The notes below the pieces were generated by a model. That model was given only the letters and a program-made list of their open reading frames with translations. It did no database searches and had not been told where the DNA came from. Shown here in pieces: positions 1 to 45,051 of a DNA stretch of 45,051 nt; within the stretch, counting starts at the first letter, position 1, and each line of letters opens with the position of its first letter. The stretch lies in the sequence record OZ035747.1; one strand, given 5' to 3'. Source of the stretch: Vectrevirus T145P2. The position numbers and the translations under genes were made by a program.

Positions 1-46
1 TAATAAGTTCAAGATTTGGAGGGAGAAGCGTGAGCGTACACAATAA
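1..46 (+). CDS. C-terminal fragment of class II holin (5-prime partial; in-frame continuation of the ORF at 44903..45051 if the sequence is circular)
   Basis: Window end leaves 2 nt (ta) that with nt 1 form TAT; reading on gives YNKFKIWREKRERTQ then TAA at 44-46, a basic tail typical of holins. Confidence 0.45.
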   Translation, partial: NKFKIWREKRERTQ

Positions 47-329
47 ACATGCAGCTACAGAGGACGAGGTTGGCATTCTGCATGGTGCTATTACCAAAAT
101 CTTCAATAAGAAAGCACAGGCAATACTGGACACTATAGAAGAAGACCCTGATGCAGCATTACATTTAGTGTCTGGTAAGGATATTGGTGCGATGTGTAAG
201 TGGGTTCTTGATAACGGCATTACCGCCACACCTGCTGCACAGCAGGAAGAGTCCAAGTTATCTAAGCGCCTCAAGGCTATCCGAGAGGCATCCAGTGGCA
301 AGATTATTCAGTTTACAAAAGAGGAGTGA
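30..329 (+). CDS. terminase small subunit (T7 gp18-like), GTG start
   Basis: GGAGG at 21-25 then GTG at 30; 99 aa; position directly upstream of large terminase; loose resemblance to T7 gp18 as I recall it. Confidence 0.5.
   Translation: MSVHNKHAATEDEVGILHGAITKIFNKKAQAILDTIEEDPDAALHLVSGKDIGAMCKWVLDNGITATPAAQQEESKLSKRLKAIREASSGKIIQFTKEE
122..144 (+). promoter_or_regulatory. phage RNAP promoter-like site inside the small terminase gene
   Basis: AATACTGGACACTATAGAAGAAG; matches the genome consensus except at the upstream AT-rich positions. Confidence 0.5.
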
Positions 330-2659: not shown

Positions 2660-2680
2660 TTACTGGACACTATAGAAGGA
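2658..2680 (+). promoter_or_regulatory. phage RNAP promoter
   Basis: ATTACTGGACACTATAGAAGG immediately after terminase stop; followed by AT-rich leader with TAGGT repeats. Confidence 0.8.
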
Positions 2681-2819
2681 AAGCCCAGATAATAAGATAA
2701 ATAATAGGTAATATATAGGTTAACCTAGGTTATATAGGTATACCTTAGTATGGGTGTACTCCTGTACACCCTATTCCTTACTACCTTACTATATTTACAT
2801 AATAGGAGAGAGAGAGACA

Positions 2820-3098
2820 ATGGCTAATGATTATAGTAGTCAACCATTAACAGGTAAGTCTAAGCGAAAGCAGGTACAACCTGTAAGTGAAGCACTAATG
2901 CTTCCGGTACTCAAAAAAGAGGAAGTTAGTAAGAAAAGCAATGTTATTAATGATGCCACCAAATCAGGTAAACAGAAAGGGGCCATGGTGTGCCTTGAAG
3001 TGGAAGGTGGTGTATTGAAGATTGCTATCGCGGTTGATGGCAAAGAAGATTCAGAGTGGAAGTTAGTAACAGTGGAACCAGCTGTTAACCCAGTTTAA
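2820..3098 (+). CDS. hypothetical protein, paralog A of a tandem pair
   Basis: ATG 2820; 92 aa; shares SGKQKGAMV.LE...IA.A...W motif with next gene. Confidence 0.6.
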   Translation: MANDYSSQPLTGKSKRKQVQPVSEALMLPVLKKEEVSKKSNVINDATKSGKQKGAMVCLEVEGGVLKIAIAVDGKEDSEWKLVTVEPAVNPV

Positions 3099-3116: not shown

Positions 3117-3410
3117 ATGGCTAAATATGGTACTACAGGTTCTGTTACTGGTCAGGCTTTTCGAGTAAAAGCAGTACAAACTATTGCAACGGCAATCCCG
3201 ATGCCTGTTGTTAAAGAAGCAGACCTTAAGAGTAAAGATCACCCTATCAACATCAAACATTTATCAGGTAAACAGAAAGGTGCAATGGTTGCTCTTGAGA
3301 AAAGTGACACAACCTTACATATTGCTGTTGCACGTGGTAGTGAACCAACAGACCCTTGGGATGTAACTGGCATGGAATCGCTCGCTGTCACTCCAGCAGG
3401 TGGAGAATAA
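3117..3410 (+). CDS. hypothetical protein, paralog B of a tandem pair
   Basis: AAGGAGG then ATG 3117; 97 aa; clear similarity to 2820..3098. Confidence 0.65.
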   Translation: MAKYGTTGSVTGQAFRVKAVQTIATAIPMPVVKEADLKSKDHPINIKHLSGKQKGAMVALEKSDTTLHIAVARGSEPTDPWDVTGMESLAVTPAGGE

Positions 3411-3754
3411 TGCTTAACAAATACTTCAAGCGCCGTGAGTTCGCTTGCCGTTGTGGGTGCGGTACATCCACTGTTGATGCTGAATTACTACAAGTAGTCA
3501 CAGATGTGCGTGAGCACTTTGGTTCTCCTGTAGTTATCACTTCTGGGCACCGCTGTGCTAAGCACAATGCTAATGTAGGAGGAGCTAAGAACTCCATGCA
3601 TCTTACTGGTAAGGCTGCTGACATTAAAGTTACTGGTATTGGGCCAATGGAGGTTCGTGCATACCTGTGCAATAAATACCCAGATAAATATGGTATTGGT
3701 GCTTATCCTACTTTCACTCATATTGATGTGAGGGATAATAAAGCACGATGGTAA
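3410..3754 (+). CDS. peptidase M15-family zinc peptidase, probable endolysin
   Basis: ATG 3410 overlapping previous stop; 114 aa; FACRCGCG, SGHRCAKHN, MHLTGKAADI and THID motifs characteristic of LAS/M15 peptidases. Confidence 0.78.
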   Translation: MLNKYFKRREFACRCGCGTSTVDAELLQVVTDVREHFGSPVVITSGHRCAKHNANVGGAKNSMHLTGKAADIKVTGIGPMEVRAYLCNKYPDKYGIGAYPTFTHIDVRDNKARW

Positions 3755-3879
3755 GATGCATTGAATGGTGTGAGCGCATGGTTGCTCAGGCTGCCGAGGA
3801 CGGCAACTATGATGACTGGAAGAACTACTCGGACTTGTTAGCTCAATGGAAAGGGAGATGTGATGAAAAAACTGTTTAA
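3748..3879 (+). CDS. small hypothetical ORF (43 aa)
   Basis: ATG 3748 overlapping endolysin 3-prime end; weak RBS; may be non-coding. Confidence 0.25.
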   Translation: MVRCIEWCERMVAQAAEDGNYDDWKNYSDLLAQWKGRCDEKTV

Positions 3880-4012
3880 GTCTAAGAAAGTGGTAGGTGC
3901 ACTAGTTGCACTGGTAATTGCCCTTGTTTCTGTAGGTCTTGGCGTAGACCTTGGTGAAGGTACGGAAGGTTCCGTCACTGACGTGGTATGCCAAGTAATC
4001 ACCTGTGAATAA
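3863..4012 (+). CDS. small membrane protein in lysis cassette (49 aa; holin/antiholin or spanin component)
   Basis: GGGAG then ATG 3863; MKKLFKSKK then 19-residue hydrophobic segment VVGALVALVIALVSVGLGV. Confidence 0.45.
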   Translation: MKKLFKSKKVVGALVALVIALVSVGLGVDLGEGTEGSVTDVVCQVITCE

Positions 4013-4089
4013 GGTGCTTGAGGTGGTGGCAGGTCTTATCGGCCTGCTGCTTGCCGCTAAGAAGAAGAAGGAAGACAAGGAGGCACAAA

Positions 4090-4299
4090 GTGAAGCGAAT
4101 CATGTTAGTGACAATCCTGCTGATTGGTTCGCTGATCACTTCCGGGTGTCAGCAGGCGTTACCAGAGAAAGCAATGGTGAAACCTCTGAGGCCGACGCTG
4201 ACGGAAGTTTACGAGGTAGACGATAAGGTCTGCTTTAGTAAGCCTGACGCTACAAAATTAGGTTTGTATATTCTTTCGCTAGAACGCGGATATAATTAA
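4090..4299 (+). CDS. outer-membrane lipoprotein, probable o-spanin (Rz1-like)
   Basis: AAGGAGG at 4077-4083 then GTG 4090 (alternative ATG 4102); MKRIMLVTILLIGSLITSGC lipoprotein signal with Cys; short Pro-containing mature part with second Cys. Confidence 0.55.
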   Translation: MKRIMLVTILLIGSLITSGCQQALPEKAMVKPLRPTLTEVYEVDDKVCFSKPDATKLGLYILSLERGYN

Positions 4300-4328: not shown

Positions 4329-4351
4329 ATTTACTGGACACTATAGAAGAG
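4329..4351 (+). promoter_or_regulatory. phage RNAP promoter upstream of tailspike genes
   Basis: ATTTACTGGACACTATAGAAGAGG, exact consensus. Confidence 0.85.
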
Positions 4352-15807: not shown

Positions 15808-17796
15808 ATGGCTATTATTCAGAATGTACCGTGTCCCGCCTGTCAAAAGAATGGACATGATATTACTGGCAACCATCTTATGATATTTGAGGATGGCGCT
15901 GGTTACTGTAACCGTGGTCACTTCCATGATAACGGCAAGCCTTATTACCATAAGCCAGAGGGTGGCATCGAGATAACCGAATTACCTATTACTGGCAATA
16001 TCAAATATACACCTTCTCAGTTTAAAGAGATGGAGAAGGAAGGGAAGATTAGCGACCCTAAGCTACGCGCCATCGCACTTGGTGGTATGCGTATGAAAGA
16101 CCGTTGGGAGGTTATGAATGAGCAAGAAAGGGCAGACCAAGAAGCAGAGTGGAAACTTGATGTTGAATGGTTCCTCACGCTTAAGCGTAAGAATCTTGTT
16201 TCCCGACACATTCGCGGCGACATTTGCGCATTGTATGATGTACGTGTCGGACACGATGAAGATGGTAGAGTCTCACGGCATTACTATCCACGCTTCGAGA
16301 AAGGTGAGCTAGTAGGCGCCAAGTGTCGCACATTACCTAAAGACTTTAAGTTTGGTCATTTAGGTAAACTCTTTGGTATGCAAGATCTTTTCGGTATGAA
16401 TACTTTGTCTCACGTGTTAGACAAGGGAAGACGAAAGGATTGCTTGCTTATTGTGGGCGGCGAACTGGATGCACTAGCAGCACAGCAGATGCTCCTTGAT
16501 TCTGCCAAGGGTACTAAGTGGGAAGGCCAGCCTTACCATGTATGGTCTGTCAATAAAGGTGAGTCTTGCCTTGAAGAGATAGTGCAGAACCGTGAGCATA
16601 TCGCCCAATTCAAGAAGATTATATGGGGTTTTGATGGAGATGAGGTGGGGCAGAAGCAGAATCAGCAAGCGGCTCGCCTGTTTCCTGGCAAATCCTATAT
16701 CCTTGAATACCCTTCTGGTTGCAAAGATGCTAACAAGGCATTGATGGCTGGCAAGGCTAAAGAGTTTGTTGATGCTTGGTTTAATGCCAAGTCATCTGAT
16801 GAAGTCTTTGGTAGCCAGATTAAATCTATCGCATCTCAAAGGGATAAGCTCAAGGCTGCACGTCCAGAGCAAGGGTTATCATGGCCTTGGCCTAAGCTGA
16901 ACAAGGTAACGCTAGGTATTCGTAAGAACCAGCTTATCATTGTAGGTGCAGGCTCTGGTGTAGGTAAGACTGAGTTCCTCCGCGAAGTGGTTAAACATCT
17001 TATTGAAGAACACGGTGAATCTGTAGGCATCATTTCTACAGAAGACCCGATGGTCAAGGTGTCCCGTGCTTTTATCGGCAAGTGGATTGATAAGCGTATT
17101 GAGTTACCGCCAACCAACGACCCGAAAGAAGACGGATACCGTGAGGTGTTCGACTACACCGAGGAAGAAGCTAACGCTGCCATTGATTATGTGGCTGATA
17201 CAGGAAAGCTATTTGTGGCTGACCTAGAAGGCGACTATTCTATGGAGAAGGTAGAGCAAACTTGCCTAGAGTTTGAGGCTATGGGCATTTCTAATATCAT
17301 CATTGATAACTTAACGGGGATTAAATTAGATGAGCGTGCTTTTGGTGGGAAGGTTGGTGCACTTGATGAATGCGTCAAACGAATTGGTACTATCAAAGAC
17401 CGACATGCGGTTACGATTTTCCTTGTCTCTCACCTTACACGTCCTCCGGCAAACCGTACCCAACACGAAGAAGGTGGCGAAGTTATCCTTTCTGACTTCC
17501 GAGGCTCAGGCGCTATCGGATTCTGGGCATCTTACGCCTTGGGGATTGAGCGTAATACAAGAGCTGAAACGCTTGATGAAAGGACTACCACGTACATCTC
17601 TTGTGTCAAAGACCGCGACCAAGGTATCTACACAGGAACCAAAGTCATGCTCAAGGGTGACATTCAGACCGGGCGTTTGAGAGAACCACAAGCTAGAACA
17701 AGGTCGTTTGATACAGGCGAAGCAAGGCAACAAGAAGTACCGGATTTACCGGACACTATAGAAGAGACAACCTTTGACGATGAACAGGAGTTTTAA
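15808..17796 (+). CDS. DNA primase/helicase (T7 gp4-like)
   Basis: 662 aa; N-terminal Cys4 zinc motif CPACQKNGHD...YCNRGH; Walker A GAGSGVGKTEF; acidic C-terminus ending DDEQEF. Confidence 0.95.
   Translation: MAIIQNVPCPACQKNGHDITGNHLMIFEDGAGYCNRGHFHDNGKPYYHKPEGGIEITELPITGNIKYTPSQFKEMEKEGKISDPKLRAIALGGMRMKDRWEVMNEQERADQEAEWKLDVEWFLTLKRKNLVSRHIRGDICALYDVRVGHDEDGRVSRHYYPRFEKGELVGAKCRTLPKDFKFGHLGKLFGMQDLFGMNTLSHVLDKGRRKDCLLIVGGELDALAAQQMLLDSAKGTKWEGQPYHVWSVNKGESCLEEIVQNREHIAQFKKIIWGFDGDEVGQKQNQQAARLFPGKSYILEYPSGCKDANKALMAGKAKEFVDAWFNAKSSDEVFGSQIKSIASQRDKLKAARPEQGLSWPWPKLNKVTLGIRKNQLIIVGAGSGVGKTEFLREVVKHLIEEHGESVGIISTEDPMVKVSRAFIGKWIDKRIELPPTNDPKEDGYREVFDYTEEEANAAIDYVADTGKLFVADLEGDYSMEKVEQTCLEFEAMGISNIIIDNLTGIKLDERAFGGKVGALDECVKRIGTIKDRHAVTIFLVSHLTRPPANRTQHEEGGEVILSDFRGSGAIGFWASYALGIERNTRAETLDERTTTYISCVKDRDQGIYTGTKVMLKGDIQTGRLREPQARTRSFDTGEARQQEVPDLPDTIEETTFDDEQEF
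17744..17766 (+). promoter_or_regulatory. phage RNAP promoter inside 3-prime end of the primase-helicase gene
   Basis: ATTTACCGGACACTATAGAAGAG. Confidence 0.7.
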
Positions 17797-17957
17797 TGGA
17801 AATTATTAAACCAGTATTGAATATCGGTATTGAGATCCTATTCATGCTTGTGATCGCAGATTATGCTGCACGATATGGATTCAAGAAAGCTGTGAAACTT
17901 ATCGTTGCATCTGGTTTTATTATGTCAATGTTCTTTATTGTAACACGCCTTATCTAG
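17796..17957 (+). CDS. small membrane protein (53 aa, two hydrophobic segments)
   Basis: AGGAG then ATG 17796 overlapping helicase stop (TAATG). Confidence 0.5.
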   Translation: MEIIKPVLNIGIEILFMLVIADYAARYGFKKAVKLIVASGFIMSMFFIVTRLI

Positions 17958-44902: not shown

Positions 44903-45051
44903 ATGATTAACTCCGAACTGGTAGATAGTGGTGTGAAGCTTGCGCCACCTGCACTCGTATCAGGTGGGTACTTCCTCGGTATCAGTTGGGATAATTGGGT
45001 GTTAATAGCAACATTCATTTATACCGTGTTGCAAATTGGGGACTGGTTTTA
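44903..45051 (+). CDS. class II holin (T7 gp17.5-like), 3-prime partial at window end
   Basis: AAGGGGG then ATG 44903; GYFLGISWDNWVLIATFIYTVLQIGDWF parallels T7 gp17.5; ORF runs off the window. Confidence 0.7.
   Translation, partial: MINSELVDSGVKLAPPALVSGGYFLGISWDNWVLIATFIYTVLQIGDWF

Follow-up and report, generated by a model that had tools for sequence, protein, structure and literature searches.

An overlapping reading frame in the lysis cassette of a K1-5-like phage is very probably a gene and a candidate partner of the o-spanin-type lipoprotein

Sequence record OZ035747.1 (Vectrevirus T145P2; 45,051 nucleotides (nt), referred to below as the window) is a K1-5-like Vectrevirus genome, ~90% identical to VEc3, K1-5 and K1E, in a rotated form: the assembly is circular and its cut point falls inside the holin gene. 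In the lysis cassette of this phage (positions 3410 to 4299) an open reading frame (ORF) of 73 amino acids (aa), here called A, overlaps the gene of a lipoprotein of the o-spanin type, B. Substitution patterns indicate that A is almost certainly a real, functional gene, whose conserved product appears to be translated in coupling with the small membrane protein encoded upstream, T. The overlapping A/B pair seems to travel as a unit through unrelated phage types, and we give about an even chance to the reading that A, and not T, is the cognate partner of B, i.e. the functional equivalent of an i-spanin. Gene roles are assigned here on sequence evidence throughout. The ORFs of the cassette are listed below; those reported in the initial annotation of the window (endolysin, 49-aa protein, overlapping frame and lipoprotein) had correct coordinates on re-reading.

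3410..3754, + strand: endolysin, predicted soluble zinc peptidase M15 of 114 aa without signal sequence (PF08291, phrog_894, likeness to 1LBU)
3748..3879, + strand: X, 43-aa acidic protein with a CxxxC motif (phrog_1312, unknown function, E 1.5e-18)
3863..4012, + strand: T, 49-aa protein, predicted type II (N-in/C-out) in the inner membrane (hydrophobicity, substitution ratio, gp19.5 profile match)
4005..4226, + strand: A, 73-aa protein (phrog_9219), with a GTG start overlapping the last codons of T and the 5' part of B in its +1 frame
4090..4299, + strand: B, putative outer-membrane lipoprotein of o-spanin type, 69 aa, mature form of 50 aa from Cys20 (phrog_8971, lipobox, SpaninDB)

Coding-type substitution patterns were found in all four small ORFs (X, T, A and B), which are thus not chance ORFs; the ratio of nonsynonymous to synonymous changes (pN/pS) is 0.21 for T and 0.25 for B. 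The frame of A is open, with the same GTG, in 34 of 34 close and moderately distant loci. In codons 4-25 of A, the 66 nt that are clear of both T and B, column entropy is 1.09 at codon position 3, against 0.70 and 0.31 at positions 1 and 2 respectively, and pN/pS is 0.33 (spanning-tree count) or 0.46 (pairwise), compared with 1.1-2.6 in the other frames. Where A runs over the signal peptide of B, substitutions silent in A and changing B reach 0.87 per possible change, while those silent in B and changing A are at 0.36 and those changing both at 0.18; these counts are approximate, being taken on spanning-tree edges between mutually related sequences. The most variable position of the A/B overlap is codon position 2 of B, which is position 3 of A. 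Given the excess of A-silent over B-silent substitutions, A is the more constrained frame in the core of the overlap.

In all lineages the start of A falls at the stop of T or within a few bases of it: the sequence is GTGAATAA here, Erwinia phage VL73 has ATGA and the Logan contig L037 has GTGA. The initial annotation had called this frame start-poor, a description that no longer fits, as the start sits on the T stop in all lineages and is ATG in VL73. Such a start-at-stop layout carries the signature of termination-reinitiation coupling to T, and the start-poor look of A would follow from this translational coupling. A fusion of T and A by programmed frameshifting at GAA-TAA-G was also considered; it is ruled out because the relation between the two frames varies (A is +1 of T here, and -1 in VL73, L037, Pseudomonas phage MR4 and contig L041) while the start-at-stop arrangement stays constant. 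A tryptic peptide of A is EAQSEANHVSDNPADWFADHFR.

An exhaustive profile search for the A family gave 152 representatives, nearly all of 58-95 aa. They follow a common plan: a helix rich in Leu at the N-terminus comes first, then a charged stretch and the motif [DN]P-x-x-W[FWM]-x-x-HF-x-G, and the tail is polar. All members tested belong to phrog_9219, of 'unknown function'. In the AlphaFold2 (AF2) model of A, residues 2-36 form a helix at a predicted local distance difference test score (pLDDT) of ~90, followed by a helix at 38-45 with the motif DNPADWFADHF and by a disordered acidic tail.

In each of the eight distant loci that are long enough to be read (L036-L038 and L040-L044), the +1 frame of A encodes a lipoprotein of the B family (phrog_8971). 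Among these loci are Mu-like, integrase-bearing and marine contigs with four different endolysin families; a ninth contig, L045, has lambdoid-type neighbours (YbcO, RusA) and an endolysin of the M15_4 family but stops short of a readable B. For VL73 (L036), L037 and MR4 (L038), T, A and B are in place and the endolysin is an unrelated protein of 150-185 aa, which points to a modular exchange of the muralytic enzyme in an otherwise fixed cassette. Elsewhere A follows an Amidase_3, SLT or M15_3 endolysin with a small membrane protein between the two. This membrane protein has 77 aa in some of these loci and is a two-segment 'holin' (phrog_34682) in others; T shows a weak alignment to the first of the two segments of the latter. 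In L040-L044 the B-family lipoproteins occur without a T-type protein, and they never occur without A.

Proteins that combine a coiled coil with a membrane segment are encoded just 5' of the endolysin in L041 (1546..1884), L042 (1050..1379) and L045 (1493..1882). The membrane segment of the L041 protein is N-terminal; this protein may be an i-spanin of the conventional kind, with consequences for the role of A if it is.

B is the sole lipobox ORF of the window. It starts with the GTG at 4090, 6 bases 3' of AAGGAGG (a strong Shine-Dalgarno), and its N-terminal sequence MKRIMLVTILLIGSLITSG, with the lipobox residues LITSG, runs up to the cysteine, which is followed by Gln at +2. Among the PHROGs it corresponds to phrog_8971, 'Rz-like spanin' (E 2.3e-39). 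Across 41 homologues the SGC of the lipobox is conserved and Cys48 is invariant, and the +2 residue in the homologues shown is Q, G, S, A, N, V, K or L, never Asp. A residue other than Asp at +2 directs lipoproteins to the outer membrane. The AF2 model of B consists of a signal helix, a disordered Pro-rich linker, a compact beta-hairpin with the conserved Cys and a C-terminal helix LGLYILSLERGY; pLDDT exceeds 90 at residues 40-65, and a fold search with this model against the PDB returned nothing below E = 4. With its lipobox signal, the lack of Asp at +2, a short Cys-bearing periplasmic domain and a place in the lysis cassette, B bears the signature of an outer-membrane lipoprotein of the o-spanin type. 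The initial annotation as a probable o-spanin thus agrees with the phrog_8971 match, the SpaninDB listing and the lipobox. A relation of B to T7 gp18.7 was examined and rejected, the alignment being restricted to the signal peptide.

The partner of B at the inner membrane is less readily named. Canonical i-spanins consist of an N-terminal membrane segment followed by ~100 periplasmic coiled-coil residues, and from their sequences neither T nor A appears to answer to this definition. T has an N-terminal anchor of N-in/C-out topology, and its periplasmic tail is of 21 residues against typically ~100 helical ones. For A the o-spanin gene does overlap in the +1 frame (4005 vs 4090, and likewise in the eight distant loci); ~50 residues extend beyond its hydrophobic stretch, and a 35-residue helix and a short helix are modelled by AF2, while no N-terminal anchor is predicted and export to the periplasm is unsupported. 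The initial annotation held that a normal-length i-spanin is not evident, and indeed no other ORF of the window has both a membrane segment at the N-terminus and a long tail. It also took the overlapping frame as the only i-spanin candidate, which overlooks T, the published candidate (SpaninDB, LL11 and Premi annotations). The possibility that A is a diverged or truncated Rz was rejected, as A has no similarity to T7 gp18.5 and no Pfam or NCBIfam match.

Public records are divided over these genes. In their 2018 survey of spanins (PMC6139136; SpaninDB), Kongari et al. enter K1-5, K1E and SP6 with 'separated' spanins, T being the i-spanin and B the o-spanin; its curators flagged T as 'Too small?' and the pair as 'Too short', the combined periplasmic length being 71 residues (PMC6139136). 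For UAB_Phi78, which has the same cassette, SpaninDB gives an 'overlapped' pair with the A homologue as i-spanin (PMC6139136); the coordinates of that i-spanin are exactly those of the A homologue once a shift of 119 nt from one record version to the other is corrected for. For LL11 the genome announcement has 'a separated spanin pair', and the LL11 and Premi annotations make T the i-spanin. T is labelled 'holin' in PHROGs and RefSeq and 'i-spanin' in CPT and SpaninDB. Of the three genes, the SP6 RefSeq record (L034, 4587..4805) has T and A (gp48) but lacks B, whereas that of K1-5 (L001) has T and B but lacks A; one A-frame protein of SP6 (P0051) is named 'o-spanin', and UAB_Phi78 annotates a truncated T.

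We favour A as the partner of B because the linkage of A and B is universal and that of T and B is not. Several observations weigh against this choice. The best 19-residue window of A scores 1.46 on the Kyte-Doolittle scale and +4.5 kcal/mol on the Wimley-White octanol scale, i.e. it is not membrane-spanning, when the controls (T, T7 gp18.5, both holins and the signal peptide of B) range from -3.9 to -9.2 kcal/mol; these are simple scales and not a trained predictor. The short hydrophobic N-terminus, proposed in the initial annotation for an i-spanin candidate, is accordingly not predicted to cross the membrane, here or in most relatives: 65 of the 110 motif-bearing relatives have fewer than 10 consecutive uncharged residues in the N-terminal helix. 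The KKKK that follows the hydrophobic stretch makes export of the C-terminal domain less likely. Cysteines are absent from A, and there is little conservation in its C-terminal tail, while T has the right topology for an i-spanin and two conserved periplasmic cysteines, B having one conserved Cys. We found in the literature no experimental work on T, A or B of K1-5 or SP6.

These last features of T are the ground of the published view, in which T is a minimal i-spanin forming with B a two-component 'separated' spanin through periplasmic cysteines, and A is an accessory gene of unrelated function. The strong N-in/C-out anchor of T, its conserved C-x4-C tail and the conserved Cys of B speak for it, as do the SpaninDB listing for K1-5, K1E and SP6, the LL11 and Premi annotations and the LL11 announcement. 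We nevertheless consider it unlikely. The tail of T is of 21 aa only and the SpaninDB curators themselves flagged the 71 residues of the pair; the '77-nt gap' from T to B in fact belongs to the coding sequence of A; B-family lipoproteins do without a T-type protein in L040-L044 and never without A. Moreover the probable homologue of T in T7, gp19.5, coexists with a full Rz/Rz1 pair, and the genetics of gp19.5 are related to the holin.

T is the strongest hydrophobic segment in the window, which bears out the 49-aa membrane protein initially annotated at 3863..4012. It has five lysines, then a 19-residue hydrophobic core, then an acidic periplasmic tail of 21 aa ending in the C-x4-C of Cys43 and Cys48. 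A profile-profile comparison with the gp19.5 family (hhalign) gave a probability of 72.5% and P 3.2e-5 over 31 columns, with both cysteines aligned. Like T, gp19.5 is a 49-aa protein that is basic at the N-terminus, has a single membrane segment and carries a C-x4-C one residue before its end, and it is encoded after terL; unlike T it is the last gene of its genome, with no A or B behind it. T7 thus has gp19.5 and a complete Rz/Rz1 pair without A or B, and the T family exists independently of B. The similarity is statistically modest, which counts against our reading, and we regard homology of T and gp19.5 as likely. When the gp17.5 holin of T7 is deleted, the compensating substitutions A24D and E38G arise recurrently in gp19.5, which was therefore proposed to serve as a secondary, holin-like factor (PMC2680503, PMC8365609). 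By analogy T may act at the inner membrane as a holin-like factor of lysis timing.

An alternative of another kind is that A is a cytoplasmic or peripheral-membrane regulator, antiholin-like, working with the holin-like protein encoded upstream (T here, the two-segment proteins elsewhere); the A/B overlap would then be genome compaction only, and B would work with T or with an unidentified partner. The lack of a predicted membrane segment in A and the basic cluster after its helix would fit such a regulator, and so would the constant translational coupling of A to a small holin-like membrane protein. Two gene fusions bear on this point. In the metagenomic protein P0232 a membrane protein of the upstream type is fused to A, and its charge pattern, read by eye, would leave the A domain in the cytoplasm. 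The marine contig L040 (329..616, P0195, 95 aa) has a fusion of the A domain to a T-like membrane segment, overlapped by a B homologue; the fusion resembles a canonical small i-spanin with its o-spanin, and its charge pattern, also read by eye, would set the A domain in the periplasm. This second fusion, which favours A as the partner of B, is known from a single short contig of metagenomic origin and could have arisen as an error of assembly or gene calling. The two fusions imply opposite membrane sides for A, and either may be an artefact. Compaction, for its part, leaves unexplained that the same +1 overlap with the same lipoprotein family is found across Mu-like, lambdoid-type, T7-like and marine phages, and persists while the endolysin and the upstream membrane protein are swapped. 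We give the regulator a small chance of being correct.

That A is not translated at all, its openness and apparent conservation being by-products of constraint on the T cysteine codon and on the lipoprotein gene, is hardly credible: a GTG forced by the TGT-GAx codons of T, the lack of a Shine-Dalgarno upstream of A and the absence of A from the annotation of K1-5 and many other records would suit it, but the substitution analysis contradicts it, with third-position-dominated in-frame change in the 66 nt clear of T and B and the highest variability at codon position 2 of B in the overlap, as do the motif conserved among the 152 family representatives down to ~20-30% identity and the ATG start in VL73.

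The other genes of the lysis set and the promoters around them are as follows.

44903..45051, + strand: N-terminal part of the predicted holin (49 and two-thirds codons), T7 gp17.5 family, continuing at position 1
1..46, + strand: C-terminal part of the holin with its stop codon, overlapping the start of terS (30..329)
2660..2680, + strand: phage-RNA-polymerase promoter, directly 3' of terL; predicted start of the late transcription unit that includes the lysis cassette
4331..4351, + strand: phage promoter with the exact consensus; predicted start of the tailspike unit and 3' bound of the cassette
123..143, 2660, 4331, 15434, 17746, 22209, 22977, 24123 and 32391: the nine copies of the phage promoter

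The endolysin matches Pfam Peptidase_M15_3 (PF08291) over the full profile (E 6.5e-33, 113.6 bits vs a cut-off of 23.2) and phrog_894 (endolysin) at 1.7e-45. The zinc ligands H-x6-D...H are present (SMHLTGKAAD, THID), and the nearest solved relative, the Zn D-Ala-D-Ala carboxypeptidase of S. albus (1LBU), is alike over the zinc site. The assignment of the M15 peptidase as the endolysin, made initially from the sequence, is thus in agreement with family searches and public annotation. As it has no signal sequence, it would depend on the holin for access to the cell wall. A tblastn search of the window with T7 gp3.5 gave no match, in keeping with the reported absence of a gp3.5-type amidase, and homologues of T7 gp18.5 and gp18.7 were likewise not found in the window by tblastn.

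Read across the junction the holin gene is unbroken and gives a 64-aa protein that matches Pfam Phage_holin_2_2 (PF10746) end to end (E 1.5e-27, 95.5 bits vs the curated cut-off of 25.4); T7 gp17.5 hits this holin at 4.6e-6. It overlaps terS by 17 nt, a layout found also in K1-5 and LL11. The holin therefore does lie beside terS at the window junction as initially described. Its distance of 40 kb from the endolysin is an artefact of rotation, as are all distances across the window ends, because the circular assembly is cut inside the holin gene; its true position is 3.4 kb upstream of the endolysin, across terS and terL. Nor is the 'split' layout special, since the T7 holin also adjoins terS.

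X overlaps its two neighbours, the endolysin gene at its 3' end and T at its start, and is under purifying selection (pN/pS 0.31 in frame vs 1.2-1.5 out of frame). It is found also in SP6, Klebsiella, Proteus and MR4-type relatives, the endolysin of the MR4 type being of a different family.

A region of 1.15 kb around the cassette has matches in 121 phage records. DNA identity is 88-95% with the closest, which include VEc3, KMB14, AAPEc6, K1-5, K1E, Mt1B1_P10 and many 'Vectrevirus' genomes (the gene order is shared by VEc3, K1-5, K1E and Mt1B1_P10), and 67-77% over the region with Salmonella SP6-type, Klebsiella and Proteus relatives. As in K1-5 and LL11 the order is tail fibre, holin, terS, terL, two small paralogues, endolysin, small ORFs and tailspikes. 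The promoter of K1-5/SP6 type (TTACTGGACACTATAGAAGAG with at most 3 mismatches) occurs nine times, when none is expected by chance; the copy at 123..143 falls within the terS coding sequence. The tandem paralogues, at 2817..3098 and 3117..3410 between the promoter and the endolysin (93 and 97 aa, 38% identical), have no Pfam match; both are called 'acetyl-CoA acetyltransferase' in public records via phrog_2725, which given their small size looks like a misnomer that has spread. In the replication-gene region a 53-aa ORF (17796..17957) has a hydrophobic C-terminal half.

The identity of the cassette and the roles of the endolysin, the holin and B are highly probable. Combined with A as the partner of B, they would give the following course of lysis. 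The cassette would be transcribed late from the phage promoter at 2660; the holin would permeabilise the inner membrane, where T would be a holin-like factor of the gp19.5 type, and the soluble M15 peptidase would then degrade the wall. B, already lipid-anchored in the outer membrane, would act with A to breach that membrane. One possibility is that A enters the periplasm only after holin triggering. Further still goes the idea, quite improbable in our estimation, that A and B are a widespread third kind of spanin, with an inner partner that is soluble or an amphipathic helix, is made by coupling to a holin-like gene and meets B only after the inner membrane has been permeabilised. If it were true, outer-membrane disruption would be licensed by the triggering of the holin and not by removal of the peptidoglycan mesh.

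For this genome the consequences are small: it is another K1-5-like phage with the usual lysis genes of its group, and the cassette appears to be the ordinary, already catalogued set of a K1-5/SP6-type podophage. The i-spanin of SP6/K1-5-type phages has however never been convincingly identified, and SpaninDB gives this role to two different genes in one homologous cassette. That A is under selection and a constant companion of the B family across unrelated phages, yet anchorless, turns a curators' footnote into a testable question on the outer membrane. Recognition of A as a gene would correct the annotation of more than 100 phage records.

Compared with the spanins of known type, lambda Rz/Rz1 and T7 gp18.5/gp18.7, the A/B pair is alike in having, in a lysis cassette, a lipoprotein gene in the +1 frame of the gene of a helical protein, and B is alike in its Pro-rich linker and periplasmic Cys. 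The pair differs by the absence of sequence similarity, and A by its length, half the usual one, and by the lack of a predicted anchor. The 'disruptin' phiKT gp28 (bioRxiv 10.1101/515445) and the u-spanin T1 gp11 (PMC6139136) are reported to be small lysis-cassette proteins that act on the outer membrane without a canonical Rz-type partner. Unlike the former, A is no cationic peptide: it is net acidic (11 K+R, 13 D+E), and a 'disruptin' role was ruled out on charge. Unlike the latter, B has no C-terminal membrane segment; the hydrophobic stretch of its C-terminal helix (LGLYILSL) has only ~8 residues, and B was therefore rejected as a unimolecular spanin. The holin resembles T7 gp17.5 by its full-length profile match and by the same place between the tail-fibre gene and terS, with no difference noted. 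The closest systems are the cassettes of K1-5 (gp43-gp45), K1E and SP6 (gp46-gp48; Molineuxvirinae), which agree in gene content and gene order, with a DNA identity of 76-93%: an M15 endolysin, a 43-aa ORF, a 49-aa membrane protein, an overlapping ORF of 72-73 aa, a 69-aa lipoprotein and a gp17.5-type holin by terS. There is no material difference between them and the cassette described here, public records disagreeing only on the small ORFs that are called. The arrangement is thus known; what is new is the selection on A, stronger than that on B in the core of the overlap, its start at the T stop in all lineages, its lack of a convincing membrane-spanning stretch, the link between the A and B families and the proposed homology of T with gp19.5.

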